From assembly GCA_964187785.1 (NCBI GenBank), contig OZ076414.1, positions 63,302,001 to 63,366,000 of the forward strand: a DNA stretch of 64,000 nucleotides, written 5' to 3'. The notes beneath the pieces were generated by a model that worked only from the letters and a program-made list of their open reading frames with translations, did not search any database and had not been told where the DNA came from. Both the position numbers and the translations under genes were made by a program. Numbering within the stretch: position 1 is the first letter of the stretch; each line of letters starts with the position of its first letter. Of the stretch, positions 4,721-64,000 are shown piece after piece. The stretch is from Amphiscolops sp. MND2022. Taxonomy: Eukaryota.

Positions 4721-5039
4721 ACTGGCCTGTACGACAAATGAGTTCCATGTAACCATCATCCACTTTTCAATTGTTTTCGTTTATTTTTTGGTCCTCTTTG
4801 TCAGAAGTTCAAGTCCGTTTTTAATCCACGCAAAATGTTTTTTTTGTGCAGCAAACCCTCTAGCTGAAGAAATTCTATAGCTTTTTCTTTAGTATCACGC
4901 CAAAAAGCTAACTTGATGAAAGTCATTTTTTGGAAAAATGGTTTCTTACCTTCCGGTTTGCAATCAAAACTTCCCGTTAGTTGAAAACTGATGTTGATTA
5001 CAGAAAAATCTTGCTGGATGTGAATAGAATGTTTTCATA

Positions 5040-7785: not shown

Positions 7786-8007
7786 TATAATAGCAAGCTG
7801 AGTGTCAATCAGTTTTCAGTACAACTGATTTGCTTCGCTTGGAAAATTTGTTCACACGGTTTGTGTCAACTCTATGAATTGTTCAGCTGGCAGACTGGAC
7901 AACTCTCCTTATATAGTAGATAACTTCTAGTATTAATAATTCCATTGTTTTACGCCACATCTTCTTTGAATTTTTCATGGTTTGTTATTTTTAGACAAGT
8001 TTGAAAC

Positions 8008-11849: not shown

Positions 11850-12169
11850 AGACTGTTTGAAACTAAACAATGATGAATAGCTTTGATTTATTTTCTTTTG
11901 TTGTTTCTTTATTGTATACCCATTGTCCTGATGTTGTAGTGTTCCGCCAGTCGGTTCCGTTATTATAGAGAAAGAGAAGGAGAAAAAATTGTTATGCTCT
12001 GGTAGTATGGAGCAAAAGAGAAAAAATTGAGGTAGCTCGGTGTTCCTCTGGGTTATTCAATTTAGTATTTAGCCTCTGTATCGTTTTCATCCAAGTCGTA
12101 GAGTGAAAGAGTGATAAGCCATTGTAGGTTGAGGAGATTTGAGATTCAGTTGTAGATCGGCCATCCAGG

Positions 12170-15100
12170 TTAGAGCCTGGGGCCACATTGATTTTCTGAT
12201 CTTGGGCCCCCGTCTGGGCCGAGGTCTGCTAGGATCTGTATTTCTGGGCCGTCGCTCAGGCCTTCGTTTTGAATTGCGGGATTTTCGGAGTTTATTTCTA
12301 CTGCATTATAGTATGCGAAATCTGGTTTCCAATTTGAAGCTGGGTTTCGTCGGAGATTGTAATGGGATTTTCGGGGGGATTTAGGAACGGGTGGACAATC
12401 TTCGGGTTCATCTTCGGTGTCTAGGTCTGGGTCATCTGTCTGGGTTTCCGGGTGGTTATTACTGCTTCCAGGTGCATGCTCTGGGTCGGGGTTCGAAGGG
12501 CTGGGGTATATTGGGTCAGTATCTGGTTCCTGAGCTTGGGGTATTACTTTGGGTTCGGGTGGTTGACTATTTGTGGGGTGGGTAGGGTGTTCTTGGTGAA
12601 GTTCCTGCCAAGCCATTGCGAAAAGGTCATCGTGCTGTATAGGCACTTCGGTGTCCTGCTGGAAATCTTGAGGCGCAACTGAGATGTCAGGCAGTTTGTG
12701 GCTGCTTGCGAATGGCCGTAGTCTGATTCTGTGCAGGATTTGGGTGAGGTTCGTTTGGAGTTTTCGGATTAAATAGTTATTATTGGGTAGGGTTTTGACC
12801 ACGATATATGGTCCCGTCCAAAGGTATTCCCGAAACGGCAGTTTTGTCGCTTGGCTATGCGCCTTTGGATGCAATGCATAGCAGTAGTCGTTTACTACCA
12901 GTGGGTTTGCTGATGCCTTTCTGTCATAATAGCGTTTATGACGGACATAGGCTTGCATCAGAGCTTGCTGGCTTTGGTTGAGGATCTGTTGTGTTTGTTG
13001 TAACACTTCCTCGGCTATCTCGTGGTTGATTGGGGTAGGGGGCTGCGGCTTGAGTCCATATTTCAGGTCGAGTACATTGTAGGGCACTCTTCCGTGAAAC
13101 ACTCTGCTGGGTTCGCATCCTAGTGATGTGTGGTATGAGGTATTGTAATTCAATACCGCCATCGGTAAGAATTGATGCCACATCGTGCGCCGTTCCCCTG
13201 TCATTATTTTGAGGCTTTCCTTCAGGGAGGCGTGAGTCCTCTCCAGGATGCCGATTGTCTGAGCGTGTTTCGTGGTGGCGTGTTTCAGTTGGATTCCCAG
13301 TGCAGCGGTGGTTTGTTGCATCGCTTCTGATATGAATTGGGATCCCTTGTCCGTTATGATTGTTGTGGGTAAATAGCAATGTCTGGTGATGATGTCCATT
13401 AGGACTCTGGTGACCGTTCTGGTGTCGATTCTAGCGACACTGTAGGCGAATAGGTACCTGGAGAAGACATCCATTGCTGTGATGACTGCGGTGTAACCTC
13501 CTGATGGGTCGTCGAAGGGGACTATGTCCATCTGGAGTGCGTCTTCGGGTCCCATTGCTATTTTTGACATGTCGATTAGTGGTGGTGTGATGGTGCTATT
13601 GGGTGTCCGCTTTGTTTGGGCGCATTCCATACACTGTGAGATATGGTTGGCTATCCGGGCGGCAAGTCCTGGGTAGTAGTATTTCTCGCGGCATTGTTGA
13701 ATGGTTTTGGCTATGCCCGGATGTCTTCCATATTTGCCATGATGGTGGTGTATGAATTCATTGACCAGTTGTTGGGGGAGCAGCACTTGTAAATATTTGA
13801 CCTTCCCCGTATCCCCAAAATATTGTCTATACAAGAGGCCGTCTTTGATGATGATCCTATCTTCTTGGGCTAGGTACTTCGCTGCTCTGGGGTCGTCATT
13901 GAGGAGTTGGGTGTCGTACGGCTCCTTCAATATTTTGAGCTTGAGATTTCTGAGGACAGGGTCCTGGTCCTGGTGTGGTCTGAGGCTGCGTGGAAAACTG
14001 TTTTCGTTGTACAGCTGGCGCCTTTGTTTCTGTTCCGGGTCTTGGATGCTGTTGCAGACCAGGGGTAGATTCTCCGTTTGGGGTTTTGGTTCAGTCGTAT
14101 CAGTTTGAGTATCAGTTGGTTGTTCTTGGGGGTTATAGATTTTCTTTCGGGCACTCTGTTTGCGTTCCCAGATGTCTTCCTCAGTTTCGGAATCGTCTTC
14201 TGGCAAGAAGTAAAATTGGTCCTCCTCATGTATATCTGAGGACTGGATGTTCACTTGGATGGGTGTTGTCTGGATATCTTCTCTGATTTGGAGAAGGACT
14301 TTTTCTTTGGGACTGATGTCCAATCGGGAGAGGAAGTCTGCCGCCGTGTTCATCCTTCCGGGCACATGGGCGATTTTGAAATGGAATTGAAGCACGAAAT
14401 CACAAGCGTTCCACAGGGAGGGTGGAATCATTTTGGTTTGAAAAAACCTTGTGACTGATTTATTGTCTGTTAGGACGATGGTTGGCTTAGAGGAACCCCA
14501 CAAGATGTGACTATACTCCATGAAGGCGAAATAGATGGCTAAAAACTCCTTGGCATAAATTGACAATTTCAATTGTGACGGAGAGAAAGTTTTAGATCCA
14601 AATGCCACAGGAGCATAGGTTTTCTTGGTGGAGGTGAGTTTCTGTTCTGGGTCCTCTTCGGTCATTAAGGCGTATCCTGCGTTCTTGAAATTGGCGTCAG
14701 TCATCAGGACATTTTGCCGGTTTGGCAGCGGCTGTTTGAGGTAGAGCCCGCACGCGTTGTCTAAGGACTTGTTGATGGCCTCAAAGTTTGCTATGAGCTC
14801 TTGGTCGATTTTGGCAGGCTTGTCAGATTTGATGAGTTCGTGGAAAGGTGCAATCTTCTCGGATAATCGAGGAATGTAATTTCTGTAATAGTTCACAAAT
14901 CCGATATATCGTTGAAGTCCTTTCTTCGTTCGGGGGAACTTGAGTGTTTGCAGATATTTCTGTATCTTGTGGCTCTGGGGTGCTACGCCTGATGGGGAGA
15001 TCGTCCGCCCAAGGAATTCGACTTCCTTGGCGCCGAACTGACATTTCGCCATTGTGAGCCGGAGTCCTGCAGCGCGGATGCATTGGAAGACCTCTCTCAA

Positions 15101-17752: not shown

Positions 17753-17754
17753 AG

Positions 17755-17764
17755 TTAGTTTTTT
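17755..17764 (-). other. -1 ribosomal frameshift slippery site A AAA AAC immediately before gag stop TAA
   Basis: Minus strand CAG TCA AAA AAC TAA; the -1 frame reads KKLTLPHLQ into pol. The same heptamer-stop is in element A (543-534, 1963-1954). Confidence 0.85.
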
Positions 17765-19317
17765 GACTGGGTTTGGTTTTGAGGTTGAGTTTGAGGTTGG
17801 GTAGTCACTTGCCTTGGAGGTATGAATCCCATGTGGTCAGTTGTCTGGTTGTGGTACTGGGTTTGGGTTTGGGGTTGGGTTGTCATTGAAAGGGGAGGTA
17901 GGTAGCCCATTTGGCTGGTTGTTTGATTTTGATATGGCGGTTGGGTCACTGGTAGATTGGTTTTGGCATACTGACCTTGTGACTGTGGTGGTAGCGGTAT
18001 GCTGTTTGAGGACGTAGCCTTGGGGGTTTTCCACCATTGTGGTCGATTTGCCCAGTTGGCGCCTGAGTAGCATTCTTCAGTTGTGTGGCTTTTCTTGCCA
18101 CAAGTTTCGCATGGGTTAACTATTTTGTTGGGCACTCTGTTACCCCGATTGCGAGCTTCGCGGGCTACTTTTCTGCAATTTTTGACAACATGGCCGGATT
18201 GCCCACATCCGTAGCATGGTCCTGATGGTTTGGGGGGATTCGGAGCTTGTTGTGGGTCTTGCACGTCAATTTGGTGCACTCCTGTTATGTTGCTCTCGTT
18301 TGGTGCCAACAGTTCGTTTAGCTCCATCTCTCTTTCTAGGTGTTCGACCATCATTTCGTACGATTCAGTTTCTAACCTTGCCTGGTTTAGCACTCGTTTT
18401 AGGTGGGTCGGCATTTTGGCGTAGAAGGAGGTCTCAATGAACTTGGGGGCGTCATCTCCGTATGCTTCTTGGGCCAGTTTTTGATACTGCTCCAAGAAAT
18501 CTTGGAAAGTTTGTTGGGATGGGTCAAAATAGAGCTGATTCCATTTGCAGCGGGCTGTTGCGATAGATTGGGGGCGGACATATCGTCGTCTGAAGGTTGC
18601 TATGATGTCCTCCAGGCTGGCACGGTTTGTGTCAGTCATGTTGCGGTAGGTCTGCAGGGCGTCATCCCTGAGTAAGGAATGGAAATAGTGTATTTTCTCT
18701 TCTTCGGATATGTTGGGATACACTTTGAGGCTAGTCATAAAAAGGTCTTCGAAGTGTTCAAACTTGTCGTTTTTACCTTTGAAAGTAGGCATTGTTGTTG
18801 ACATCGCTTTTGGCAGTCTAGGGAGCCCGATATTTTGTTGGGTTACATTCTGTAGCGATTCTAGTAGCTTTTCCACTATGTGGTCCGGGTATTTCTGGTT
18901 GGGGGGCGGTAGGCTTGATGATCGGGGCGGCACTTCTGCTTGAGGGAACACTCCTGTCACCATGTGTTGACCCTGCGATGGGTGCAACTCGTTCAGTATG
19001 GATGGCCTTGATGTTGAGGCTTGATTTTCGGTCTCGTCGGAATCTAAGGCGAGGTTTTCACAATTGGGTGGTTGGCCGGACAGTGAGTCTATTTTCGAGG
19101 ATAAGTTCTCGATCATTTTCAAAATCTCTCTCTGCCCAACTTCGGCATCTCTTATTCTTCTAGTCACTGACTTTTCAATTTTCTCAGATAACTCAGAGAA
19201 GTCTCGGTCGGAAATACTGGGAACGTTTTCAGTTCTCAAACTAGTTGCTTCTGACTCGCCTATCGAACTAGTCACTGAATCTCTCCTGGCCTTTCTTTTG
19301 GAGGATCTTTCAGGCAT
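17755..19317 (-). CDS. gag: Element B Gag, 520 aa, two CCHC knuckles; first 118 codons encoded inside the 5' LTR
   Basis: CYGCGQSGHVVKNC and CETCGKKSHTTEEC knuckles; the same N-terminus is duplicated in the 3' LTR (5035-5394). Confidence 0.93.
   Translation of the reverse strand: MPERSSKRKARRDSVTSSIGESEATSLRTENVPSISDRDFSELSEKIEKSVTRRIRDAEVGQREILKMIENLSSKIDSLSGQPPNCENLALDSDETENQASTSRPSILNELHPSQGQHMVTGVFPQAEVPPRSSSLPPPNQKYPDHIVEKLLESLQNVTQQNIGLPRLPKAMSTTMPTFKGKNDKFEHFEDLFMTSLKVYPNISEEEKIHYFHSLLRDDALQTYRNMTDTNRASLEDIIATFRRRYVRPQSIATARCKWNQLYFDPSQQTFQDFLEQYQKLAQEAYGDDAPKFIETSFYAKMPTHLKRVLNQARLETESYEMMVEHLEREMELNELLAPNESNITGVHQIDVQDPQQAPNPPKPSGPCYGCGQSGHVVKNCRKVAREARNRGNRVPNKIVNPCETCGKKSHTTEECYSGANWANRPQWWKTPKATSSNSIPLPPQSQGQYAKTNLPVTQPPYQNQTTSQMGYLPPLSMTTQPQTQTQYHNQTTDHMGFIPPRQVTTQPQTQPQNQTQSKN
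18949..18962 (-). other. Primer-binding site of element B (TGGTGACAGGAGTG), resembles tRNA-Leu-type PBS
   Basis: Directly abuts the LTR-terminal CA at 18963. tRNA identity is inferred from similarity to TGGTGTCAGGAGTG and was not verified. Confidence 0.85.
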
Positions 19318-21170
19318 TTTTCGGGTTTAAGGTTTATAAGCTTGAGGCTATCCAACGGGAATCTGAGGGAAAAGATTGAGATTTTTTTAATCTTCAATTG
19401 TATTTTCAAAGTGAAGAGTAAAGTTGTTTTACAACGAATGATTATCGAATTTCAAGATTCTAACAAAATTGTCAAATTATCAACTTGTTGAAATTATCAA
19501 GATTATTTTCTCACTGGAATTATTCAATCTTCCAAAGTATATATACTTTTCACCCACGTGAAGCGGGGAAAAATCCGCACCACTTTCACGCTTCGTTCAG
19601 CCCGGCGTCCCTCCAAGGCGGGGAAACAGGAAGTTCAGTTCCGCTTTGTCGAACTCAGACTCTCAGTTTGTTCATGCTTTCCGAGGAAAGCAAGCGTCCA
19701 CTTCCTGTCTGAGTTGCGACTCCGCTTCCCTTCGCCTCCAATCCCCGCCTTTTCAAGACGCCGAAACTGAACAAAGTGTGAAAAAATTAGTCACTGCGCA
19801 CGCCCAAAGAGCGAAATGATCGAACAAAGCAACAAATTGGAAATTGGGAAAATGAGAATTTCCCGAATTAATTTGGTTCAAATATTGCACGGCGAAATGA
19901 TTATTTAATAAGAAATACAAATTAGCTCATAAAGTTCACTCATGAGAGCTTAAAATCACAAATTCGAGTATAAATGGGAAAGTTCGGTCCCAGGCTAAAG
20001 TCTGGAACGGTTGAGGCAAAATGAAATGATTTCCTGAAAAATAATGATTAATTATATCAACAACAAACAATTCAGTGATTAGCATCAACTCGAAAATACG
20101 GTTCGAGTCTCTTCCCAATCTAGTTGAGTGGAAATTGACTCTAAACAAGGCAACACAACTCATTTATGGAGATTAAAACAAGCTAAATCGAACATTCAAT
20201 CCCAGGCCAAGGTCTGGGCCGAGGCTTGGCATTCTCAAATTAAATACTGCATTTACATGGTTAAAATCATCATACATTGCATGCAATCAATCAATACCGC
20301 TTACTGTTGTATGCGTTGCGTCACTGCTCTCTCGTGAGAGCGGAGAAATGGTTAGGGAGGGTCGATATTTCCAATTCCAGGATGGATTTGGTCAGAATAG
20401 ATTTCAGGCCGTGTCTCAGGCCGCGGTCTACTTCGTATAGCACTTGAACATGGTTTATCTGTAAAAATAGCATCATACTTCATTCTTTGTCTCCAGGCAT
20501 CATTTGAGATTGCAGGCATTGATTGGTAGGCTCATTAGGAGCAGAAAAAATCACTATTAACATTAACAATTTCCATTTCTACAATGGATTTTATAGATTT
20601 ACATTTCAGGCCATGTCCTGGGCCGCAGTATATCGGTATTTCAAAGTTAGCTCCAATACTTGTTTATATGGACAATTACATGTATAACGTTATTCTAATA
20701 CTCGTTTAACGCATCAACAGGTTTACATGTACTCACAAAATAGCATAATTGGTGTTAGAGATTGATTCGTAGCACTTTCATTCTCAGGCCACTCGCCAGG
20801 CCACCGCTTCACTGCGCAAATCTCAGGCCGGCTGCCAGGCCGCAGTTCCGCCATTATTCATTCAGGCCGCTTACTGAGCGGTGTGATTGTATTACTATTA
20901 ATTATATAGCACCGTATTAATACTATTAACTGCACAAGTAGCTTTATCCCGGTTAGTATACTGTATGTAAGTATATATAACTACATAAATATTAATATAT
21001 AATTTCTTCTAATTATTATATTATTTAGCGCCATTATTTCAGGTTGTATGGATTAAACTGATTGTTTTCTGGTTTTCTGTTTTCATTTCTCCTTTTCCAT
21101 TTCCTAATTTATTCTTCGAAGACTGGGTTGATTCTGCTGCAACACTCACAGCTCAAGTGGGGCTGTGACA
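18963..21170 (-). repeat. 5' LTR of element B (TATA box TATATATA at 19538-19545)
   Basis: Pair of 5040-7247; TATA context AAAAG-TATA matches the related LTR D. Confidence 0.95.
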
Positions 21171-48648: not shown

Positions 48649-49227
48649 ACATGTTGCTTGACAGGCAATAAATGAGGTAATGAAGCATCCAATAATGGCA
48701 AACATTCTGAAACTTTTTGTCTTTATCTTCAATTTATGCACGTGCTGGATTTGTGTTGAAATGGGCCCTGATACGCATTGGAAACGTGCATCTTTTTATA
48801 AACTTATTACAACAAAACTATGTTTTCTGCAGAAATTGACAGGTGTGACTAGAGGATGGAGAAAAATCTGAGCGAAGATGCGTAAAAGTTCAGTGTTTAA
48901 AAAACTTTTCTAAAATTTTTCTACTTAAATTCTCTGAAAATTTTGATCAAACATAGCTCCAAAAATATCAGCCATCTCGTAGACTGGCTGAAAATTGCCA
49001 TGAATTAAAAGCTGATTTTATGTATTTTTAGGGAGTCGTTAAAAAAGTAACTGAGGTGAAAATTTTAGTTTGTTTAGTTCGTGTGGATAAAGGAAAAGAA
49101 CCTGCTAAGTTTTCTGTCAGAAAACAGACATCTCTTTTAATGATCTATTTGTGAGAAACATCTATCTTTTAACGCATTAGTGATAAAGTATCCCAGGCCC
49201 AGTTTATCCTCTTTGATTCTCCGTATA

Positions 49228-50536
49228 CAGTCATCGGAATTGAAATCGGGACAAACATTGAACAACGACGCACGAACAAAATTAATTGACAATGAAATTA
49301 ATTAAGCAACCAGTCAAAATTGAAACAGTTCAAAGGTTCAGATAACATTTTTGTCACTCATTGATCTCAAAAAAGATAATTTATTACTTCGTTTCGAGTA
49401 AATTTTCATGGCTCCTCATACTACGTATTCTGTTCGAAAACATACTCTTTGTTTTCTTTTCCAACGAGGCAAAACGCAGCGTGAAATTGCAGACTTGACA
49501 GATACCAGCAAGAGTTCTGTTGATCGAACTATTGTCAAATTCAAAAAAACTGGCAGCATAGGGCCTAAATCACGTACAGGGAGGCGACCCAAAACTAATG
49601 AAAGATCGATTCGAAGTTTGTTAAGGATGGCAACTATTTGGCCCCATCTTTCAGCCCGACAATTGAAAAATGATTAGACAGATGGTCATCTGTATACAGT
49701 TGATAGCGTTGAAAAAGTTCTAAATAAATATGGCTTGAACAGACGCGTAGCTCCAAAGAATTTCAAGGTTAACGCAAGACATCGCCTTTTAAGAAAAAAG
49801 TGGTGTAGTCAAATGTTAAAAAACCTACCCACAGATTTTTCAAAATAAATCGCAACCGACGATTCAGTTTTCGAGCAAGATCCTAAACGGCAGGAGTTTG
49901 CTTGGCGACCGAAAGGACCCGCTGATTTTAGTCGCCGCTCACAGTACTCAGCCAGAAGTACAAACACTAGGAGTCAGTCCAACGTTGATGATCTGGGAGA
50001 AAATTTGGTCTTCGGGTTTCCGATTTCTTGTTATAACCCGCAATTCTTTAGATGGGCCAGCGTACCAAGCACTCATCAACCAGAATTTGTTTCCAATTTG
50101 TGACGAAGACTTCTTCCTGCTCCAAGACAACGCGCCTCCTCATAAATCAGCTTCAAAAATGTCATTTTTGGAAGAAAATGACATAATGTTAGTGTTAGTT
50201 AACGACTGGCCACCTCACTCACCCGACCTGAATGTCATTGAAAACGTATCGAACATGCTCGGTGACAAGCGGGAGGGCAAGGAATTTACACATTTGAACG
50301 CTTTGTGGAGTTTTTCGGAGAAACAATTTTATTTCATTTTATTCCGGACAGCTACATTCAAAAGTTATTTGAATCCATCCCGAGACGGATTCGGGCTGTT
50401 CTCAAACATCGGGGCTATCCCACTAAATACTGACTTTCATTTTGTTTATGTCATCAGCATCTAAAAAGTCTTTAGTGCTAACCTTTTTGTTATATCTACA
50501 AAAAACTCTTTGTCCCGATTTCTTTTCCTGCGACTG
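49228..50536 (+). mobile_element. Degenerate Tc1/mariner DNA transposon
   Basis: TA-flanked imperfect TIRs CAGTC...GAAATCGGGACAAA; HTH ORF 49408-49677; LQDNAPPHKS and WPPHSPDLNVIENV DDE motifs; multiple stops and frameshifts. Confidence 0.92.
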
Positions 50537-51626
50537 TATAACGAACACTAGAAACGACAGATGGTGCCCTTCAGAATTTTTACATTGCGAGATCCTTTTC
50601 CGAAAATAATTCATTGTTACGGAAAGATCTCCTTGGACAATTTTGAATTTTTGATAATTAGGGTCCAAAATAGCCCGCATGGTCCCATATTACTTTTGAA
50701 AATTTTTCAGAATCAGTCGTCTATCAAAACAGGTTTTTAAAACTTTCATTTAGGCGGGCAATCAAGAATCAAAGATGACAATCTTTATGACTCACGGACA
50801 GAAGGTGTCGGAGCCCCAGTGACTCCTGGAGTACACACTACTTAAACTTGACTTGAGTTTCAGTCAACTGTATACTCTGCGGTTTCATGTTATCCTCATT
50901 TGGACATGTAAAATTATTAGTGTTAATGCTCATGTAATTGCATAAACTAAAGCTGTACCAAATACCTACTGCTTGTCAAATTATTGGATCGAATTATCGA
51001 TAGCAGATATGAGAGCGAAATCAAGAGGTAAAAAGAAACGCGTTCAACTAGTGCGGGTCTTGAGTCTGGTTTTGTTAGGTTGCTGAAAATATTAATTTTA
51101 GTTATTATTCTTTGGTTAATCATGTAAATATTTCACGTAAACTATGTATTAGATTGTATTATTGACCCACTTTATCTCAAAATCTAGAAAAAAATGTAAC
51201 GGATTTGCCTGGCATGCATGAAAGCAGCATGGGAAATTTACCAGCAAATTCAACTAAGGTCTGTTTCGGCTGCTTTCATTTTCAACTTCTAAGACAATTC
51301 AATAAAAAAACAACAAATGTTTTTTACCTTTCTTGGAACGTAGCATAACAAATTTACAGATGTGATGTACAGGTGTAATCAAGTACGCATCTCGATGAAA
51401 AGTTTTACAATAAAAAGACGACACTTTGCGAAATGGCGGCGAAGAATATCGACAGAGATGCTGGAAGTAAAGGAGCTCAAATTTTCAAAGAACTAGATTC
51501 TTAGAGATTTAAAACTTACGGTAAGGTTTCTCAAATCCATAATCAACAATAAAAAGTTGAGGATATGTACTCACAACATTCATTTGTAAAATTCAACCGA
51601 AAAATTTTTTGAAAAAATAAAATCTT

Positions 51627-53210: not shown

Positions 53211-54499
53211 TTTTTAAACCTGTATATAATTGCAGCTTTTTTGAAACTTGTTTTTACTGGCCGACTGGGATAGTGGCTGGTATGAGTAGTTGGTTGGTTG
53301 TTTCTAGTTGTTACTGGTCTATTGGGATAGTGGCTGGTATGGTTTCCTCCTTTCGATGCAGACCACTGGTGTGTGTCTTCTCCTCCAACATGATGACACA
53401 CATGGAACTTGATTAATGACGACCATCCATGATTTCTGATAGTGGAAAAAAAGCAAACAAATTCTGTCAAAAAAAAACGATTGTTAAAAAGCACTGCCAG
53501 CTGTGATTTTGGAGAAATTGTCACAATTTGTAACAATGTATCACAATTACGCGATGTGAAGTGCGTTGGTTAAAAATGTTTTTCTTATTCAGATTTTTGA
53601 TGCATGCGCTTTGCGCTGGTGATTTTTATGTACGAGTTTAATCAAGAAAAGAAATATAATTCTCAATTCACTTTCGATTTACTTTCTGAAGTAATTATGT
53701 GAGTTCGATCAGAATAATTATAAGTCTCAATTATAGTCTAATTTGTGAACTCTTAGTTCACTTCTCGTCTAATTTCTAATTCCAAATCTAAAAGTAGTCT
53801 CGTACTTAAAATTTTCGCGACTGTGCCTTCCTACACTTCAACAAAGGTAGTCTCAGGTGTGAGTTCGGATGGAAGGACTTTATTTCTACGACCCGTGAGA
53901 AAAGTGTATTTTGGACTATGAATATGTAAATTGAATCTTTCTTTATTTATATTAAAGTTGTAATAAATGTCACTCATACAAAAGCAAAGTGCACAAATAA
54001 GCATGAACAAAAAGAATATAATTAAATCAAACTTGAAATCTATCTTTAAATAATAAGAGATAAGTTGTTAGAAAAAGAATTAGTTATTAAGTCGTTTTAT
54101 GTTTTACCAGATCAAGAGGTGAAGCCTCTTTATAAGATGCAGCGATAGCTTGCAAGGTGTTTATAGTCCACTGATTGTCACGGACTGAAAAGAGAGCTAC
54201 TTGCTTCTCTTGATTAAAGGACAACAGATTGTTGTACTGGTTTTATAGAGTGCTATACGGCTACTCTTTGTCTCAAATTGAGAACAGTTCGACTTGAAGA
54301 GTCAAACAAAAACTAAGTTATTTAAGTCTCTTATAACCCAGCTGAAGCTATGGTTCTTGGTTTAGAGTCAGTATATCTACCAGACTTTAGTTTAGAGTCT
54401 ACTATAAAGCAGAGACTTTTCAATCTTTGTTAAACAAAGACGGTATGATAGCTTCTGTTCGAAGTCAAAAGTCAATTAGAACTCCAACGTAAGAGAAGA

Positions 54500-54985
54500 T
54501 TTGCTTTAACGATGAAAGCAGATTTTTGTTTTGTTTTAGATTGAAAATATTATAAGACTAAGACTTAGCTTGCCTTTACTTGAAGGCGGATTAGCAAATA
54601 GTTAAAGATTTAAATTGCTTCAATATTAAAGCAGAGTTAAAAAGCTTAAGACTTAACTTGTTTTGGCTCGGAAATATGCTAAGATAAAAATGCTTTACTT
54701 GAAAGCACGTTGGAAATAGTCTAAGACAAATTTGCTTTAACTAGAAAGCAGGCTTGACAAAAGTTTAAGTTAAAATTGCTTCACTCGAAGCAGAGTTGAA
54801 AATCGTCTAAGACAAATTTGCTTTAACTAGAAAGCAGGCTTGACAAAAGTTTAAGTTAAAATTGCTTCACTCGAAGCAGAGTTGAAAATCGTCTAAGACA
54901 AATTTGCTTTAACTAGAAAGCAGGCTTGACAAAAGTTTAAGATAGATTTGCTTTACTTGAAGCAGTGTTGAAAATAGTCTAAGAC
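54500..54985. repeat. Tandem repeat: ~43-bp subunits, two exact 86-bp dimers (54719-54890)
   Basis: GTCTAAGACAAATTTGCTTTAACTAG recurs at 54719, 54805, 54891. Confidence 0.9.
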
Positions 54986-55258
54986 AAGACTGAGCCAAAA
55001 CTTATAAAACTTTAAGAAGGTTGAAAACTTAGGCAAAAAGCACATAGACTAAAATGAGTTAAAGTTAAAGTTGAGAAAATATCTTAGAAAAATGAAAGCT
55101 CCAAAAAGAAAATTGAAATGGTTTAACTAACAAATGTTGCGCCGCGCTGAAGATGGGGATTGAACCCGTGAATGAAGATTGTAGAGTTGAAGATGAGTGA
55201 TTTATCAATTTAGTATTTTGCCAAAGGAAGAGCTCTAAGAGTTGAAAATTTGGTCTGC

Positions 55259-55431
55259 TTTTATACTAAATTTGACCGCTTCGTCAACCAGTAAAATTGA
55301 ATCACTGTTGTGATTGGTTGACGAGCATGACGTCATATGACGTCAAGTCATATGATCTGACATACGAGATCATTTTGTATGTGTATTTCGTGGGCGAAGC
55401 GTCCACGAGAAAATGATGTCATTTGACGTCA
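55259..55431 (-). promoter_or_regulatory. LTR core promoter: three CRE palindromes, CCAAT box, TATA box
   Basis: TGACGTCA at 55328, 55338 and 55424; CCAAT (minus) 55313-55317; TATAAAA (minus) 55259-55265. Confidence 0.7.
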
Positions 55432-55702
55432 TGACCAAATATGGAATGTAACCAGCGTCGCTGGACAAAGGGAGTGAACACGTTCGAGCGTGTTCAGAAT
55501 TCAGAGCTGAGTGAGAAAATAACAAAGATAAAACTGCGCAAGTCACAAAAGATAAAACTACATGTTACAAGTTTTGAGTTTATTTCTTTTTGAGTTATCG
55601 TAGTAAGTTTCTTTCTTTTTATTTGCCATAAGTCGCACACGACATCTCACCCGGGTTTCAAGATTGAAGAAATTGTAACAGGGGTACACAGGTTGTTGGC
55701 GT

Positions 55703-57148
55703 TCATGTTGATTCTTCTAGGTTAACTTCGATGAACATAGTGTCATTCAGGATGAATGGGGAGTTGCTTTTGAAGAGTTGGCTGTGTGGGATCAGGAAGG
55801 GGAAGCATATGCTCGGGTTCCCATAGCTTGTACAAGGTCGTATAAAACAAGCTGAATTTTGGTTGTCTTTTGGATCTACTATTTTAGTCCAGGTATCATT
55901 AGGCTCACTCAAATTGATTACATTAATTCGGAAGATTAATTTGAAAGGCCAGGAGAGAATTGGGTCGAACTCGCCAGGAAGGATGTTAATAACTAGTGAA
56001 GCACTCTCTCCAGTAGCAGGAGAGCATCCATAAGGGTAGAGTTTCATATCAAAGCGATACCCATGAGTTGATGTGTAGAATGGAGGGCTGTGAAAATTAC
56101 AAGGTATTTTTGGGTGCGGGTCGACGCCTTTTTGCCTTTCTAGTTCTGCAGCCTTTGCGTTATCAAACATAAGGCTGAAGGAGCTAATTCTCCAGATTAG
56201 CTTTTTGTCTCGTCCACAATCAATGCTGTGAATACGATCATAAAGATCCATTGTTAGACGTTTGAGGGGTTTCAGTTCAGCAAGTCGTCGGTGTATATCT
56301 GTTGATTCGGGCTCGGTTGAAGAAGGGATAGGAAGAGGAGTATTTACAGGTTGTTCAACAGTAGGTGTTATTATCTTCTTTTGAAGGTTTTCGACGACAA
56401 TTTGGAGTTGCTGAATGGTTCTGTCCTGTTGTCTTCGTAGGTTCTTTTCAAGCTCAAGTTGCTCGAAGAGGTTTGCAACTTGCAATTGTGTTGCGTGTAT
56501 GTATTGAGCATGTTTAAGATTGCTGAGTGGGAACTTGCTAATGAGCATCTTCATCTGGGCAAGGTCGCTGTCGGTGCATGTAGGTTGGCTGAGATTTGTT
56601 ATTTGATTTTGTAGTGTTGTAATTTCATTTTCCATGGCGGCTAATCTAAGGTTGAGCTCATCTAATAATTGTTCTTCATTTTGTTTTCAAATGAAAGCAG
56701 AGATAGCCCGAAGGGGTACTGATAGCCTCTGGTTTTTAAGAACGGTGTTTTCAATAGTAAATTCTTGTCTTTTTGAGTCCCAGAAAATAATTCTCCACTG
56801 ATTGACTTCTTTTTTGAGAGTATAGTTGAGGTTATAATGAAATCTGGGGTTTCTGGTTATCGAGTATTTTTGAGCAGCTTTTTCGCTTCTTTTTTGCTTT
56901 TCTAAAGCTTGTTTCAATGAGTATTGTGTTTTCTTCTTTTTAATACTACCGTTAAAGACAAATGTATTAGAGCTATTCGGAGGGGTAACAGTGGCGTCTA
57001 AAATTGTTTGATTGAGTGGTAGTTGAGGAATAGGAGATTCACATGAAGTGAGGTCAAACATTGGAAAATCGAGTATGTCCTTCTCTGTTAGAGTGTCTTT
57101 TGAAAGATGAAGTTCCAGATCTGACGAAAGAGAGGTGTGGTCGGTCAT
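55703..57148 (-). CDS. TRAF-like protein (N-terminal region + coiled coil + MATH/TRAF-C domain), ~481 aa, one in-frame TGA at 56687-56689
   Basis: KLIWRISSFS, HSPPFYTSTHGYRFDMKLYPYG, GEFDPILSWPF, SACFIRP, NDTMFIEV match the TRAF MATH consensus. ORFs 57148-56687 and 56635-55703 share a frame with 17 open codons between; intronless. Confidence 0.85.
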
Positions 57149-57174
57149 TTCTTGCTAAAAATAGAATACAAAAG

Positions 57175-59310
57175 TTAAATTGGTGATATTGTATCTAATC
57201 GATTAGATGCTGGCAGACAATTTATGACGGGGTAGATGTGTTCAGAAGCATCTTGATTGTCGGTACTGAATGTTGTCATGGGAATATCTTTTGTAGTAGG
57301 ATTGAACATTGAATGGGAGATTGAAACCATAAAAAGATTATAACTTGCTGATAGTAGAATTTTACCAAATCCAACAGATGCTCCAGTAAGTCGGTGTATT
57401 TCAAAGGCTCTGACAATAGTTACTGTCACATCAATAATTAGTTTTATAAAAAGGAAAACTGCAAACCAAATACCACATTTTTCTAGCCAATATCCAATTG
57501 TGCCAAATGTTTGTCTAAATTTGCTTTCGAAGTAACCAGGAGATATCATGTTATCAACAAAGAAATCCATTTTGGGTGCGTAGTATGTATATCCTTCAGG
57601 TCCTTTCTTTGATTGTGAAGGAACAATGAGCTTTCTTGTGAATTTCTGCAAAGCATTCTTTGATGCAGAACTCATGAGTATGTTGTCCCAAAATTCAGTT
57701 AGCTGGCCTTTCGTGTACATTCCAGCGTTGATTGATTGAGGGAACTGGTCCCTTGTGAATGGTGCTACATCTTTTGGCGAAAAGATAGCAGGTCTATCTC
57801 TATGTGTGATCTGTGGTGTTAGTGAGAACCAAGAGTTCTTATCGTCCATGTCCATTTGAAAAAGGTTCTTTATGTGATCCGAACAGTTCTGAGGCATTGC
57901 ATCAGGTAAAGTTTGCCTTGTGATGGGATCTACAAATTTGATTTGTCCTTTGTAGAAGATAGGTATTTTATCGTAGCACTCGTTCATCGTATGAAGAGGT
58001 GATTTGACTAGGGGACAAGAGTAAAGCCATGCAAGGCTTCCATCAGTTTCTAAGAACATTGATCTGTTTCCAGTCAACATATATCCAGCTAGTCTTGAGT
58101 TCTCAAGTGAAAGCATCAGAATAGTGAGTATGTGCGATCGTTCTTGTTCACACTGATTTTTCAAAAGATGAAGTTCTGAGGCTTTGAGTGCTCTGGAGCT
58201 CTCAAAGAAAAGGTAGTCCAGTTTAGTTCCCTGTTGTAATTCGTAGTCCATGTTCAACCATGTTCCATAGTATGGGTCTGATTGATAGTTACTAGCAACC
58301 CAGAGTTTACTATGGCCTGGGTCATCTCTTTCTTGATCATAAGGGGAATAGTGCATCTTGTGAACTCTGTCCTCTTGTTGAATCATATTTCGTCCAGTTT
58401 TCATGTCAAATCCACCATAAAGGATAGCAACAAACAAAGATTCATAGGTTGTAGGATATACATCTGATGGTTTATTACAAAGTTTTTGTGGTCTGTTTTT
58501 GATTTCAAAGAGATATTTGTTTTCTGAATCGTTCTTACTAACAATATAGTATTGATCGTCATTTTTGATCATATTTACGTACTCCTCTTTCAGTACGGTG
58601 AGAATACAATTGTCTGGATTATCCCATACATAAGCATATGGGTCAAGAGAAGTGCTGTCACATCCCAGTTCGTCTAGCTTGCAGGGTAGAGGTTGTCCAT
58701 TTTTATTCATTATAGTCCCGTCTCTGAGTTTGACGTTCAGAGTAATATCTTGGATGTGAGTTTCAAAAGTGTCTTTTTCAATCCATTCAAAACCATCGCA
58801 TTCATTTTTGAATGTGTCGTCTGCATCGCCATTCCATCTAAGATGTTGTTCAATTATCCCTTTCTTCATTGTAATTTGATGATTTAGTAGAGTTATTGGT
58901 GATCCTTCAGCTACAAGTCTGCATTGTGCAGGCGATAAATCGAGATAGGAGGTAATCGTCTTTTGTTTGATATCGATGCTGGAATGGTCATGCATTCCAC
59001 AATAGAATCTGTTTCTTTAATGTTTGACGCTGCATATGGTAGCGTTAATTTCTGTTCGAAAATGTTTTGTGTACATCTTGACTTTGGCATGGCTCATGTC
59101 TATGTTCTCAGGAGCCACGTTACAAGGTTTGACTTGGTTGAGAGAGTAGAGATTGTTTTCTGACATTTCACTGCAATCGTAATGTGAGACTGTGACTGTA
59201 GGTGCGATATCATCCAGTATGGGCTGCTTCTTGTTGGGGTAGATGAGATTTATTGAAAGCATCAAAATGAAAATAACAAAATATTTACAGTATATCTTTT
59301 CACTATCCAT
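57175..59310 (-). CDS. env: Envelope glycoprotein, chuvirus-G-like (class III fusogen type), ~711 aa, one in-frame TAA at 59017-59019
   Basis: N-terminal hydrophobic signal, HYDC...YSLNQVKPC, FYCGMHDHSS, many Cys, C-terminal TM (CGIWFAVFLFIKLIIDVTVTIV). The two track ORFs are in frame with 7 codons between. Confidence 0.8.
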
Positions 59311-59583
59311 TATCTACTAATGAAAACGGTACTCCGAAAATACTATAAAGGGTTTAGGAATAGAAAGGTAGACTTGCTAACCTTGAGATGAAGAGAGTAT
59401 TTTGCTTTCGATGAAGCAGTGAGAAGGGCGGTTTTGCTTTCAATAGAGCAGCGAGAAATCTGTAGCACTTGGCAATACAGGTGATTTGTTCAAATTGAAC
59501 TGAAAAGAGAGCAAGAATGAATTCTGCTGAAAATTGACAATTTAGTCAAAGACAAGTGGATGATAGTCCTTTTCGTTGTAAAT

Positions 59584-60312
59584 ACACGTCTAAATACCGT
59601 GTCTTCCCGCTTAAGAAAAGTGTTCTGTTTGAAACAGACAAAAGTGAGTAGTAGCGAGGAGTTATTTATAGACGGCAGAGTTTGACACTTAGGTCTTTAC
59701 CGTCTCTTCTTGCAAGGTAATGTAGCACACGTCTAAAAACCGTGTCTTCCTGCTAAAGAAAAAGGATCTCTTTGAGACCAAGAAGAAAGGAAAATAAGAG
59801 CAGGGAGTTATTTATAGACGGCAGAGTTTGATACTGAGATCTTTACCGTCTCTTCTTGCCTGAGAAAGAGAGAGTTTAAAAAAAAGTTAAATAAAGGCAA
59901 GGTTACACGTCCAAAACCCGTGTCTTCCTACCAAAAGAAAAAAGTGATCTGATTTGCCAGTTCAGAACAATGAAAATAATAAAGGTAGGGAGTTATTTAT
60001 ACACGGCAGAGTTTAATGCAAACCGTCGTTTGATCTTTACCGTGTCTTTGTCAAAGTTTGTGACAAAAATTATAATATACGTCTATACACCGTATCTTCG
60101 TTGAGCTATGCAACGGAGTTATTTATACACGGCAGAGATTGATGCTGAGATCGTTACCGTGTCTTCTTGCAAGGATAAAATTGAATACGCACGTCCAAAA
60201 CCCGTGCCTTCCTGCTGATAAGAACTGATCTGATTTAGATCAAAAAAGAAAAAGAGCAGGGAGTTATTTATACACGGCAGAGTTTGATACTGAGATCTTT
60301 ACCGTGTCTTGC
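59584..60312. ncRNA. Array of five structured repeat units (three hairpins + fixed TTATTTAT linker) of unknown function
   Basis: Units start at 59584, 59727, 59905, 60077 and 60189; compensatory substitutions in all three stems (see findings). Confidence 0.7.
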
Positions 60313-60405
60313 ACCTAAAAAGAAGAAGTTGAATGAAAGGTTTAATTAATCACAGTACACAGTATTAAAATGAAAAGATAAAATGAAAAGATGAACGGAT
60401 GTAGA

Positions 60406-60804
60406 TTAGTTCGGCAGGCTGAGGATTTCTTCTACCTTTGACTTGTAAAACTCTTCAAAGGAGCCAAGTCCAGATTCCATAAAACAAGATAGTTCGTCCA
60501 AAAGGGGTAGGTCGAAGGTTTGTATTTCTGATGCTGAATTGTCTAAGTGGAGTGAGATGGCAATGGCTAGTTCGGCAAAGAATTTAGTTTCTTCTTCTAC
60601 TTTAATAAAGACTTTCGTCAGAGGATCTAATAGTTTATGTCCTTTTACTGTTAGCCAGAATTGGTGTTGGTACGACCACTGTAGTTGTTTTACTATTAAT
60701 ACTTCAGGACTTTCGATGGGGTCGACTAGATTATAAATTGATACAGGTAGATAAAGTGAAATTGTTTCAATTTCGTCTTCTTCTCAGAGATTGTGGATGA
60801 ACAT
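60406..60804 (-). pseudogene. Small ORF paralog 3 (132 codons, in-frame TGA at codon 7)
   Basis: MFIHNL*EEDEIETISLYLPVSI...LIVKQLQWS...LLDELS aligns with the 117- and 106-aa ORFs. Confidence 0.65.
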
Positions 60805-60933
60805 TTGGTGGTTTATTGTCGTTTTCGGGTTGAATTTTGAGGAGGTTGATTTCTAGGTGGTTGTGGGAGAATGCGTCTGATCCAAGTTTGTCTAATGATT
60901 TCCTCGCGTAGACTGAAACTCATTCGATTTTCT

Positions 60934-61254
60934 TTATGCTGCTGTTGTGTCGGCTAGCTCTCCAAGGATATGGAGTTGAAATTGGGTGATGTGTGATTCT
61001 GGTTCTTCAGCGTAATTATCCAAAGCCTCAGATAGTTGTTCTCGGAGAAATCTATTACTAGCGATTTCTAAAGTGGAGACTTTGCTTTTATTATTTACAG
61101 GGTGTATTGTTATCAAAATGAAACTGGGTTTAGTAAAGGACCACTTGAGTCTGATGATATTGAAGTTTTCAGTGACGCCTGCTGGAGTAGTTATTTTAAA
61201 CGGACAGTTGAAATTGACTTCTTCAATACATTCGTTATTAAGGTGAAAGTTCAT
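60934..61254 (-). CDS. Small ORF paralog 2, 106 aa, unknown function
   Basis: Clear similarity to 61257-61610 (FNCP.KITTP.G..ENF.I..L.WS; LHVLGEL/LHILGEL). Confidence 0.75.
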   Translation of the reverse strand: MNFHLNNECIEEVNFNCPFKITTPAGVTENFNIIRLKWSFTKPSFILITIHPVNNKSKVSTLEIASNRFLREQLSEALDNYAEEPESHITQFQLHILGELADTTAA

Positions 61255-61256
61255 AT

Positions 61257-61610
61257 CTAGTTGCTTTTGTCAATGTTTTCTGGATACATCAATGGGGTTA
61301 TTGTATCAGTTAGTTCCCCAAGAACGTGGAGGTGATACTGTTCAACGTGTTGTTCAGGATTCCGAAGGTAATCGTTTAGTGCTTTAGAAAGTTGGATTTC
61401 AAGAAAACTATTTTCTGCTACTTCAAAGGTAGTTACTTTATTTTTGTTGCTAATGGGGTGTAGTTTCACGGAGATGAAACAAGGTGATATTTGTGACCAC
61501 CTAAGTTTGGTAATTATAAAGTTTTCGGAGTTGCCTGAAGGGGTTGTTATCTTCCAAGGGCAGTTGAATTCTACTTCATCAATTTCGCCTTCATCAAAAA
61601 TTATGTCCAT
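61257..61610 (-). CDS. Small ORF paralog 1, 117 aa, unknown function
   Basis: ATG directly after the upstream TAA; paralogous to the two downstream ORFs. Confidence 0.75.
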   Translation of the reverse strand: MDIIFDEGEIDEVEFNCPWKITTPSGNSENFIITKLRWSQISPCFISVKLHPISNKNKVTTFEVAENSFLEIQLSKALNDYLRNPEQHVEQYHLHVLGELTDTITPLMYPENIDKSN

Positions 61611-61826
61611 TTAAATACTATTGTCAGCATTCAGGAATGCATCCGTTGGTGCGTTTCCAAAGAATAGAAAGATGTGATGAAAATAGTCCCAGTATATAGA
61701 CGTTGGAGGGACAGTAATAATTTTCTTCTGTTTTGTTTGGTGGTGTTGAAGGGAAACGTGGAAAGTCAAATTTCGGAAATCTTGTCTAACTATTCTGTAG
61801 AAATCGTTGTTTATCTTGATGTACAT
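61611..61826 (-). CDS. Small ORF, 71 aa, first of the cluster
   Basis: ATG 41 nt after a strong 3' splice site (61867-61868); stop abuts the next ATG. Confidence 0.55.
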   Translation of the reverse strand: MYIKINNDFYRIVRQDFRNLTFHVSLQHHQTKQKKIITVPPTSIYWDYFHHIFLFFGNAPTDAFLNADNSI

Positions 61827-62826
61827 TTGCTAGATTCGTCAGCTGATTGTGTAGTTGTAGGCTGTGCTAAAATACAAACAAAACCACGCGCTTCGACTTA
61901 CTCTGTAAAATTCATTTTAGAATCTTACAAAAGCGATCGCTAAAGAACTAGTTCAAAATTTACTTTTTGCTCAAAACAAAGGAGCTAGAGGTCAGAAAAA
62001 GATTTGTGATATTAATTGGAGAATACGGCGCTTCATGACTAAAGATGAGATTATTACAAAATGAAAGCGAAGTAATAAATTACTGTTGATTACAACAAAG
62101 GAGTTTTGCGGCAAGTCATTTTCATTGTTCTATTAAGGAGGAGCTGAAATGTTTGGCGGCTGAAATGAAAGCTAGTTATGGAGCTGAAAAGACAATAAAC
62201 AAAGACGTGAACAAAGACATTAAATTGCTTTTTAAGTGAGAGTAAAGATAAGTTGAACAAAGCAATTATTTGATGAAGTTGAGTTATTTGGTGGCTGAAA
62301 ACAAAAGATTGTTATCAACAAAAGTGAAGCGTGAACAAAAGTTAAATTGAAGAAAGAAGTTGACAATATAACAAAAGTTTGAACAAAGCATAACTTTACC
62401 ACTTCAAGATAAAGTAAGTTGGTTTTTTTTTCAAATAAAGATTACAGTAGTTATTCATTTACTAATATAGTTTTATAAAGCATTAAGATGTAACAGATGG
62501 ATAAAGAATTTTGTTGGGGGTCTTCCTTTGTTTTTGTAGTTTCTTCTTTGTTTTCTTCATTTTGTCTGCTGATTTTCTGGGCTGTTCAGTTGGGTGTTTT
62601 TCGGGTGTTATTTTCTTGCGTTACGTTTTACTTTTTCTAGTTTTGATTTCTTCTAACTACGAAGTAGTCCCACCGCCGTGGAACGAAAAGTAGAAATTCT
62701 GTGGTTTTTCGGTGGTTTCGCGCCGAGCAGTTTTGGTTGGGGTAGCCGGGAAATTTTTTGAGGTAGGGGGGTGCTGAAAGTGAATTTTCAATCTGTGTAT
62801 TTTCAGAACGCTTTGATTAAAATAAA

Positions 62827-63336
62827 ATGGGCAGTTTGAATGATTTGTTGTTACCCGTTGTCGATGCAACTGAGGACGTGTGGGCTTCTATGTTTTGCCC
62901 ACAGGAGTTAGCGTCACTGAAATCTCTTGTCAGTGATTTGCATCAGCCGATGCTAAACATGGGCGCTGTATTTCCTCTGGACGTGGAGGAACGGTTGTCC
63001 GTTACCTTGCAGTTCCTGGTTGGTGCGGTTGACGTAAGTTCTTTCTTATTTTATCAGTTGTAGTTGTATTAGTTTCTTGTCGTAGTTTTGATGTCTTGTT
63101 TGAGTAGATAGAGAATGTTGATTTGGTCGTGCAATTTTTTGTTGTTTCAGTGGTTTCCTGTGCTGGCCGGCAGTGCAACAACTAGTAAGATTGTGTTTCG
63201 AGAGTTGGAGCATATTCAACAAACGTATTCAAAGCTAACTCGGTTGGCTAAACGTGAGGTGGTGGTAAGGTGGGAAATGCTCGATCATAAGCCAGTGATT
63301 GAGTTCTTGCGCCGGCCATTGTTTATAAACGAATAG
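62827..63336 (+). CDS. Antisense two-exon gene inside element F, 130 aa, unknown function
   Basis: Exon 62827-63033, intron 63034-63150 (GTAAGT...TTGTTTCAG, 117 nt, phase 0), exon 63151-63336 in frame. Confidence 0.7.
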
Positions 63337-63424
63337 AACTTGGTTATTGTAAATATTTTGTATATTCTTTTTTATAATCGGGTCTTTTGTATTTTGGTTT
63401 TTGGTAAGCTGAGCAATACAGTAT

Positions 63425-64000
63425 TTAATCTTTATATCCCTTTCTTTCCAAGTTTCGTAGTGAGCTATCGGGATGAGAGCGCTTGTATTTTGCTTTTACT
63501 TTCGATGTAAGATCAGCAACTTTATTTTTCTTTTTTGGCGATGAAGACGTAGATTGTTCAGCTTCATGAAATTGCGGCGTTGTCCTCAAAATAGTAGGAG
63601 CACGAATAGGCATAGGAGTCATAGGCAGTATAGGAGTTTGTAGCGGCGGCAATGGTGAAATCGTTAAATTTTGATAGTTGTGATCATCATTGGTAGGCGT
63701 AGAAGGAGATTGAATTCCTGAATCAGCATTAGGCGAACGTGCAGCGTGATTTTTGCTCATTTCTTGAATATTGGTGTTTTCTTGTAGCGGCGATATGATA
63801 AAAGGCATTACATCTAGGGAACATCTTTGTTGATTTGAATTGTAGTCATTTATCTGTGACTGCACTAAGTGTTTGTAGAAATCACTATCTTTTGTTATAG
63901 GCGGCGCGTAGTTAGTGATTAAAGGAGGGAGTCTTTCCTCTTTAGGAAAGTATTCAATCAGGTGATTCCGATGAGTAACTTTGATATTATCCGGGTTAGC
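63425..64000 (-). CDS. pol: C-terminus of element F Pol (integrase tail), partial
   Basis: Frame open from the window edge: VTHRNHLIEYFP (typical end of the GPY/F region), then a Pro/Ser-rich tail ending SLRNLERKGYKD. Confidence 0.7.
   Translation of the reverse strand, partial: ANPDNIKVTHRNHLIEYFPKEERLPPLITNYAPPITKDSDFYKHLVQSQINDYNSNQQRCSLDVMPFIISPLQENTNIQEMSKNHAARSPNADSGIQSPSTPTNDDHNYQNLTISPLPPLQTPILPMTPMPIRAPTILRTTPQFHEAEQSTSSSPKKKNKVADLTSKVKAKYKRSHPDSSLRNLERKGYKD

Follow-up and report, generated by a model that had tools for sequence, protein, structure and literature searches.

Regulatory complexity is usually deemed a hallmark of the vertebrate lentiviruses, deltaretroviruses and foamy viruses, the complex retroviruses that include human T-cell leukaemia virus type 1 (HTLV-1) with HBZ and the lentiviruses with Rev and its Rev response element (RRE). 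Among invertebrate elements, the mosquito Bel/Pao element Anakin reportedly carries a chuvirus glycoprotein. Chuvirus-like glycoproteins encoded beside gypsy pol have been grouped under env of the HSV/gB type (HSV, herpes simplex virus) by Chary and Hayashi (PMC13524379), whose 'ancient errantiviruses' are multicopy Ty3/Gypsy elements with gag, pol, env and a tRNA primer site. Burro/GYPSM1, a giant Gypsy element of planarians, has env, a MATH/TRAF-C domain and accessory open reading frames (ORFs) (PMC6431247), Cer1 of C. elegans makes a spliced accessory mRNA and needs its CERV protein for export of the genomic RNA (PMC10309623), Tor of Oikopleura is Gypsy-type and expresses its env through splicing or an internal promoter (PMC4402516), and plant Retand has a long region between pol and the 3' long terminal repeat (LTR) with antisense ORFs and tandem arrays (PMC11963269). 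Here we describe an element in a 64,000-nt stretch of the 1.07-Gb genome of Amphiscolops sp. MND2022 (assembly GCA_964187785.1, contig OZ076414.1, here C6, positions 63302001-63366000), hereafter the window, to whose positions all coordinates refer unless a contig or locus is named. It is quite likely, in our judgement, that this element represents a recently amplified, env-bearing endogenous virus of the Ty3/Gypsy type whose lineage added accessory genes stepwise.

The window holds the 3' half of an 18,574-bp LTR element on the minus strand, the remainder of which extends past the window end. Its 3' LTR (53555..55644, minus strand) is 2,090 bp long, runs from TG to CA in element sense and contains an 86-bp tandem array at 54680-54987; the 5' LTR (C6:63372039-63374128) is 99.7% identical to it, with 6 mismatches over the 2,090 bp. 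The whole unit is bracketed by a target duplication of 4 bp. Directly inside the 5' LTR lies a primer site, the 18-nt complement of the 3' end of host tRNA-Met(CAT). This primer pattern matched the genome 11 times against 0 for a control, one of four scanned loci was called as a tRNA, and the stems suggest a tRNA of the elongator type. At the plus-strand primer position, a conserved, partly purine-rich 17-nt segment that is not a clean polypurine tract adjoins the LTR (55645..55661, minus strand); it was identical in 7 of 9 copies examined, and the motif did not match in the other 2. LTRs, 4-bp target duplications and primer site were found in all four copies checked, three sister copies on C7, C9 and C10 having duplications of their own, and the LTR pairs of the C9 and C10 copies are 98.2% and 99.9% identical. 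The C-terminal tail of integrase occupies 63425-64000 (minus strand), from where pol, gag, the primer site and the 5' LTR run on for 8.1 kb past the window. Gag matches Retrotrans_gag (E 7.5e-6) and has one CCHC motif, and a sister Pol (L027) shows the Pfam order Asp_protease_2, RVT_1, RT_RNaseH, Integrase_H2C2 and rve, with the Gypsy-type RT_RNaseH directly after the reverse transcriptase (RT) and a bridge of 300 amino acids (aa) toward integrase in which Pfam found no match.

By its Pol order, LTR ends, 4-bp duplication, primer site and Gag domain, the element is of the Ty3/Gypsy type. Membership of the Retroviridae was considered and rejected, env lacking a furin motif in all four cases and giving a Monjiviricetes-type match instead, as was Troyka, defined by CG...CG ends and a 3-bp duplication (PMC12440569) as against TG...CA and 4 bp here. 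The window copy itself is defective, with pol broken by stops, a short insertion and a gap of roughly 220 residues, premature stops in env and ORF132, and, compared with sister copies, a frameshift at the start of the TRAF-like gene. An earlier note on this DNA, made from the window alone, had described a pol tail, a spliced antisense gene, paralogous small ORFs, a structured array, a chuvirus-type env, a TRAF-like gene and an LTR; all are present, and extending the window, as it proposed, recovered gag-pol, the primer site and a matching 5' LTR with a target duplication enclosing the genes. Its LTR boundary at 53698 needs correction, the actual start being 53555. As a separate observation, the U3 end of the LTR (55000-55644) folds better than shuffled sequence (z -5.0 and -3.5, 25 shuffles).

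Between pol and the 3' LTR we count eight accessory ORFs besides env, in line with the at least seven accessory genes noted earlier, the ORF then missed being ORF36. We estimated ratios of nonsynonymous to synonymous substitution (dN/dS) by the Nei-Gojobori method on open frames, after broken frames and identical copies had been dropped, from pairs that are not independent of one another. The values range from 0.06 to 0.37 across env and all accessory ORFs, and this purifying selection on each argues that they are not chance frames. ORF71 (61611..61826, minus strand; dN/dS 0.09-0.34, 39 distinct sequences) has a stop that abuts the start of ORF117 (61257..61610, minus strand; 117 aa), which with ORF106 (60934..61254, minus strand; 106 aa) belongs to a family of small proteins. 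ORF106 and ORF117 share 50-56% identity (pooled dN/dS 0.19-0.29, 67 distinct), and ORF132 (60406..60804, minus strand; 132 aa; dN/dS 0.13-0.19, 38 distinct; premature stop at 60784-60786 in the window copy) is paralogous to both, with a profile match probability of 93% (E 3.6e-7). Upstream of ORF132 lies ORF36 (60813-60923, minus strand), an arginine-rich peptide of 36 or 40 aa that has one of these lengths in 39 of 44 copies (pN/pS 0.28). ORF71 was also tried as a paralog of the small family, and this is unsupported (profile probability 2%).

The small-protein family comprises 58 clusters at 50% identity, nearly all of 77-196 aa and unnamed where looked up. The structure model of ORF117 has four strands and two helices (predicted local distance difference test, pLDDT, 81). 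A fold search with it gave a best Z of 4.1 (root-mean-square deviation, rmsd, 4.7; 73 aligned) and nothing viral at E<=0.001, which is no proof of a new fold. Pfam found no family common to more than one of 35 members, seven of eight proteins had no match in PHROGs, and the best Atlas score for ORF117 was 0.75. Members from another assembly (P0250, P0252, P0254, P0261 and P0280), whose best match in the genome studied here is 47%, continue into Gag-like sequence, so that the gene apparently lies just upstream of gag there.

Matches listed within the same genome number at least 150 for ORF117, at least 127 for the TRAF-like gene and at least 119 for env, counts that are lower bounds and not copy numbers. 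We compared gene order in 23 sister stretches (3, plus 20 picked from the match lists for divergence). ORF71, the small gene or genes and ORF132 stand in order in all 23, and the array, env, ORF153 and the TRAF-like gene then follow as far as each stretch extends, with env missing in one, so that the accessory block anticipated in sister copies is indeed kept. Two ORF106/117 genes are present in 10 stretches and one in 13, and exon 1 of the antisense gene was detected in 19 of the 23. Furthermore, the copies are mosaic: the integrase tail is 90-98% identical to that of the window in 12 of 12, antisense exon 1 aligns at the DNA level in only 1 of the 12, and ORF132 falls into classes of 76-78% and 89-98% identity. 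These comparisons show that the accessory genes travel with the element and are swapped among copies as divergent alleles. Individual copies also vary in content, L021 (C7:11255376-11267826) being a 12.5-kb copy that has no gag-pol and keeps the LTRs, accessory block, env and TRAF-like gene, and L105 being a copy in which env is absent. The window sequence from 60263 onward occurs again 45,859 bp downstream (C6:63408122 onward), about 100% identical for more than 25 kb; this is either a segmental duplication of very recent date or a duplicate created in the assembly.

Two sister families, designated here by their RT identity as RT-87% and RT-76%, have the same primer site and 4-bp duplications (three of three sister-family copies). 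In both, pol is followed by an antisense ORF, and they further possess a gene resembling ORF71, small paralogs numbering two or three, env, ORF153 and a gene with a MATH domain. Families at an RT identity of about 57-64% possess gag-pol-env-ORF4 only (5 of 5 stretches). In a tree of RT and RNase H sequences (52 rows, 1 of 53 having been dropped; midpoint root; no named reference elements), the complex families form a clade (support 98/93) that is sister to the simple families (97/91), and both fall within a 34-row clade (100/97, branch 0.98), from which 17 rows of ordinary Gypsy-like sequence, 25-31% identical, stand apart. With its midpoint root and three complex families inspected, this tree appears to fit a stepwise gain of accessory genes. 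Among the simpler relatives, L136-L140 have short LTRs of about 500 bp and an ORF4 in which a long stretch resembles a coiled coil and the C-terminal domain has no annotation.

We then considered how such a block might be expressed. A TTTYAG-type acceptor lies within 60 nt before ORF71 in 46 of 47 copies, and acceptors of this type also precede env (18 of 19 copies) and ORF153 (44 of 46), against a background of 1.7 per kb, and the starts of ORF117, ORF106 and the TRAF-like gene lie 0-7 nt past the preceding stop. Together, the conserved acceptors and stop-start junctions suggest that three subgenomic cassettes are likely. These signals also bear on the idea that the additional ORFs have no role, being either pieces of host sequence transduced passively or frames open by chance. 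The small proteins lacking Pfam matches, the host-gene type of the MATH domain and the loss of env or gag-pol in some copies would all suit that idea, yet purifying selection acts within the element at synonymous saturation, the ORFs are kept across three families, the splice signals are conserved and length changes come in multiples of three. We therefore take passive carriage to be largely refuted, on the grounds of selection, retention across families and splice-site conservation, and assign it a very small residual probability.

Under the reading of a stepwise-built endogenous virus, an unspliced RNA, primed by tRNA-Met for copying, would yield Gag and Gag-Pol, and the three 3' acceptors would open messages for ORF71-117-106-36-132, for env and for ORF153-TRAF, with the downstream ORFs of each message read by stop-restart. 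The 5' exon could come from a weak or gag-internal cis donor, from spliced-leader (SL) trans-splicing or, in part, be supplied through an internal promoter. The second of these options amounts to an alternative in its own right, in which the acceptors are SL trans-splicing sites and an operon-like transcript is resolved by the host SL machinery. The acceptors are indeed unpaired, strongly conserved and near start codons, the LTR and leader gave no canonical sense donor, and in one acoel, a member of the animal group to which the host presumably belongs, SL trans-splicing affects 30.2% of genes (bioRxiv 2022.08.27.505549); against this, non-canonical cis donors are known in Tor3a (PMC4402516). 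On balance we hold this alternative to be rather unlikely.

Between ORF132 and env lies an array (59584-60312, strand undecided) of five units, each composed of two hairpins and an invariant A/T-rich hinge, and the number and spacing of five units are preserved in many copies. In a covariation set of 30 distinct units, drawn from some 70 and excluding the short type, 15 pairs in two helices were paired in 98.9% of cells and compensatory changes occurred in 4 pairs, whereas slid controls dropped to 28-51%; because the units are related, paired cells overcount independent events. The array also folds better than shuffled sequence on the two strands (z -3.9 and -2.6), whereas a non-coding control shows no such effect. 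On the element-sense strand the units resemble H/ACA small nucleolar RNAs (snoRNAs) and the element for nuclear expression (ENE); one unit type lacks the ACA and a sister family has only hairpin 1, of which the RT-87% family carries 6-12 repeats, and Rfam gave no match at E<=1. Our preferred, if tentative, interpretation is that the array is a repeated protein-binding cis element for export or processing of intron-containing RNA, for which ORF36 or ORF153 may be the ligand. A different array, of three hairpin units, lies upstream of env in the RT-76% family (L113:2960-3400, also L109).

The array could alternatively act at the DNA level, as an internal promoter or enhancer that drives env and the downstream genes and is perhaps activated by ORF153, in parallel to the transactivator of foamy viruses. 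In its favour, a TATA-like core is invariant in all 30 aligned units and flanked by inverted motifs, the arrays of the window family and of the RT-76% family both lie upstream of env, the N-terminus of ORF153 is acidic and one of its segments basic, and no canonical upstream donor was found; in addition, the env mRNA of Tor (Tor3b/4b) is transcribed from an internal promoter (PMC4402516). Two distinct stems nevertheless show compensatory changes, which are more readily explained by pairing within one strand than by protein binding to a DNA duplex; the units of the RT-87% family stand before ORF71 and have no TATA-like core; and conservation persists at the acceptors that precede env and ORF153. 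A promoter array thus seems to us somewhat improbable, and we retain the RNA-level cis element as the better account.

ORF153 (56687..57148, minus strand; dN/dS 0.08-0.31, 35 distinct) combines an acidic N-terminus (net charge -7), a basic helical segment (net +11) and a small three-strand beta domain in a structure model of pLDDT 76, and is a candidate transactivator or RNA-binding regulator. The fold search with this domain gave a best Z of 4.0 (rmsd 2.5, 38 aligned), many rows of Tudor/KOW/SH3-like type being tied, and no row at E<=0.001, which again does not prove a new fold, and its match to the ORF4 of the basal families is weak (E 0.008, probability 1.5%), further distant matches being partly circular as ORF4 was in the query. 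The TRAF-like gene (55703..56686, minus strand; dN/dS 0.12-0.31, 35 distinct) encodes 325 aa in sister copies, with a coiled-coil-like N-terminal half and a MATH domain (PF21355, E 1.2e-22), and its product matches TRAF1-6 in the PDB, best TRAF5 (E 1e-14). A RING and zinc fingers are absent, as judged from Pfam, which gave no hit, and from comparison with the RING-bearing P0148. A coiled coil plus MATH without a RING is, we assume, the architecture of a dominant-negative adaptor, and we see an even chance that this RING-less TRAF is a decoy dampening host signalling. In a quick MATH tree of 10 rows the element domains stand apart from two host-like TRAFs, with a support of only 88 and long branches meeting, and an acoel immunity paper does not mention TRAF or TNF. 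In the RT-76% family the TRAF-like protein (L113:6230-7165, L109, L115) opens with a PAM2-like motif (E 0.0022, below the Pfam cut-off), presumably a poly(A)-binding-protein interacting motif. In the sister Pol, a macrodomain matching TARG1/OARD1 (E 5e-24) sits between the protease and the RT; our judgement is evenly divided as to whether this TARG1-like domain would strip ADP-ribose marks. Macrodomains are known from fish endogenous retroviruses (PMC4977317).

Env (57175..59310, minus strand) matches PF24664, Monjiviricetes_fusion (E 7.6e-30), and has a premature stop at 59017-59019 in the window copy. Sister env ORFs have a signal peptide, 16 Cys and one C-terminal transmembrane (TM) segment, and the furin RxK/RR motif is absent from 4 of 4. 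The C-terminal part is under strong purifying selection (dN/dS 0.06-0.07, 9 distinct), identity to the envs of three sister families is 60%, 57% and 37%, and at least 50 of the 119 listed env matches stand in open frames of 700 or more codons by a hand count of the first 60 rows. No match to PDB sequences was found at E<=1, and no relatives on the viral contigs searched; relatives of env, with 69% and 55% identity, are found on two short metagenome contigs, L144 and L145. Env is probably a class III-type fusogen that would serve cell-to-cell or soma-to-germline spread. The label 'chuvirus-type', which the earlier note gave it, would follow from the Pfam family match; Anakin is said to have a glycoprotein of the same broad family on a Bel/Pao backbone, whereas the Pol described here has Gypsy-type Pfam domains. 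The label stands as far as PF24664 goes, and the same glycoprotein class is already known as gB-type env (PMC13524379).

The antisense gene (62827-63336, plus strand) has two coding exons (62827-63033 and 63151-63336) for about 130 aa, with dN/dS of 0.17-0.35 (28 distinct) and 0.08-0.34 (13 distinct), respectively. In 21 of 34 rows, exon 1 ends at a GT donor or no more than 6 nt from one, while the other 13 run through a D-V-S that spells it, exon 2 is preceded by TTTYAG in 11 of 12 rows, and donor and acceptor are kept even though synonymous sites are saturated in most allele pairs. The intron presumably persists because the sense genome never has it spliced out. The profile match of the two exons to the RT-76% antisense protein is weak (1.2% and 4.6%), and because of this weak homology the case for their equivalence is based on location and on a small number of aligned residues. 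An Omp85 identity for the antisense domain of the RT-76% family (Atlas 0.96; 152 of 256 features, low recognition) was rejected, Pfam finding none in that protein.

Several points weigh against the reading of a stepwise-built endogenous virus with regulated cassettes. A GTRAG donor is absent from the sense LTR and leader, the first one lying in the gag region, which leaves the source of the 5' exon unexplained for want of a canonical sense donor. No transcript, protein or particle has been observed, the element being known here from genome sequence alone; a look-up of sequencing runs for 55600-64000 listed none, a blank that carries no information about transcription. The MATH domain is strongly diverged among families (20-30% identity), and the pairwise dN/dS values lack independence and come from open frames only. 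Finally, the strand of the array is undecided, wobble pairs favouring neither, the array lies elsewhere (before ORF71) in the RT-87% family, and the array of the RT-76% family is unmatched by the window-array model. A bolder proposal would make the element an independently evolved invertebrate complex retrovirus: an infectious virus of the Gypsy lineage with operon-like cassettes, Rev/RRE-like export, a transactivator, an HBZ-like antisense regulator, a TRAF decoy, a de-ADP-ribosylase and accessory alleles shuffled under host pressure. The complex vertebrate retroviruses likewise have accessory genes between pol/env and the 3' LTR, a spliced antisense gene and a structured cis element, but they belong to another RT lineage, have another class of env and show no homology that we found, so that the likeness is one of analogy only; we regard the proposal in its entirety as unlikely. 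'Complex-retrovirus-like' thus describes the architecture, and RNA export, transactivation and TRAF decoy activity would be its putative functions. What holds of the earlier suggestion of an invertebrate endogenous retrovirus with a complex accessory set is an LTR element with env and a large set of accessory genes under selection, of the Ty3/Gypsy type and not of the Retroviridae.

Compared with the described systems, the gB-type errantiviruses are similar in that their env, too, is a separate ORF with a signal peptide, a Cys-rich ectodomain and a C-terminal TM segment, but they are three-ORF elements as against eight accessory ORFs besides env here (PMC13524379). The prefilter of that survey admitted a pol-env gap of at most 1,000 nt, as against 4.1 kb here, and a total of 10 kb outside insects, with a later manual extension of 3-5 kb; accessory, TRAF, macro and acoel terms are absent from its main text, and six acoel terms from 7 supplements. 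Burro encodes one polyprotein of 4,900-5,100 aa with an F-type env between gag and pol (PMC6431247), whereas this element has separate genes 3' of pol and an env of another class, as well as an antisense gene and small paralogs. Cer1, likened here by description, is a precedent for the regulation we infer and differs by having one large accessory protein (PMC10309623), the available text on Tor does not mention an accessory block (PMC4402516), and Retand, of a plant lineage, has an antisense TRP28 domain and no env or sense accessory cluster named in the abstract (PMC11963269). The generalization that env is typically the sole extra gene of such elements does not survive Burro (PMC6431247) and CERV of Cer1 (PMC10309623). 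No description of the layout or of the small-protein families was found in the literature covered, most subscription papers and Repbase lying outside that coverage. The element had been called possibly undescribed; each of its ingredients has a precedent, and it is the combination and the small-protein families that appear to be undescribed.

Other elements share the window. A second, unrelated LTR element (5039-21123) has 2,162-bp LTRs that are 99.5% identical, an RT on a long branch and post-pol extras, namely antisense ORFs of 360 and 491 aa (9335-11849, with a Cys/His cluster) and a 209-aa sense ORF, in which Pfam found no match. Element remains with a 1,420-bp internal duplication lie at 1-3437, and a relic with 32-bp inverted ends at 49224-50540; from their motifs we take the former to be Gypsy-like and the latter a Tc1-like transposon.

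Taken together, these data reveal a graded series within one genome, from gag-pol-env-ORF4 families up to families with eight accessory genes, which makes the order of gain readable on one tree. At least four unannotated protein families (the small 106-132-aa family, ORF71, ORF153 and the antisense protein) and a new repeated hairpin come to light with it, and surveys that demand env near pol have a blind spot for such elements. The two captured host-type domains, TRAF-C and TARG1-like, in turn hint at defences that the host may use.

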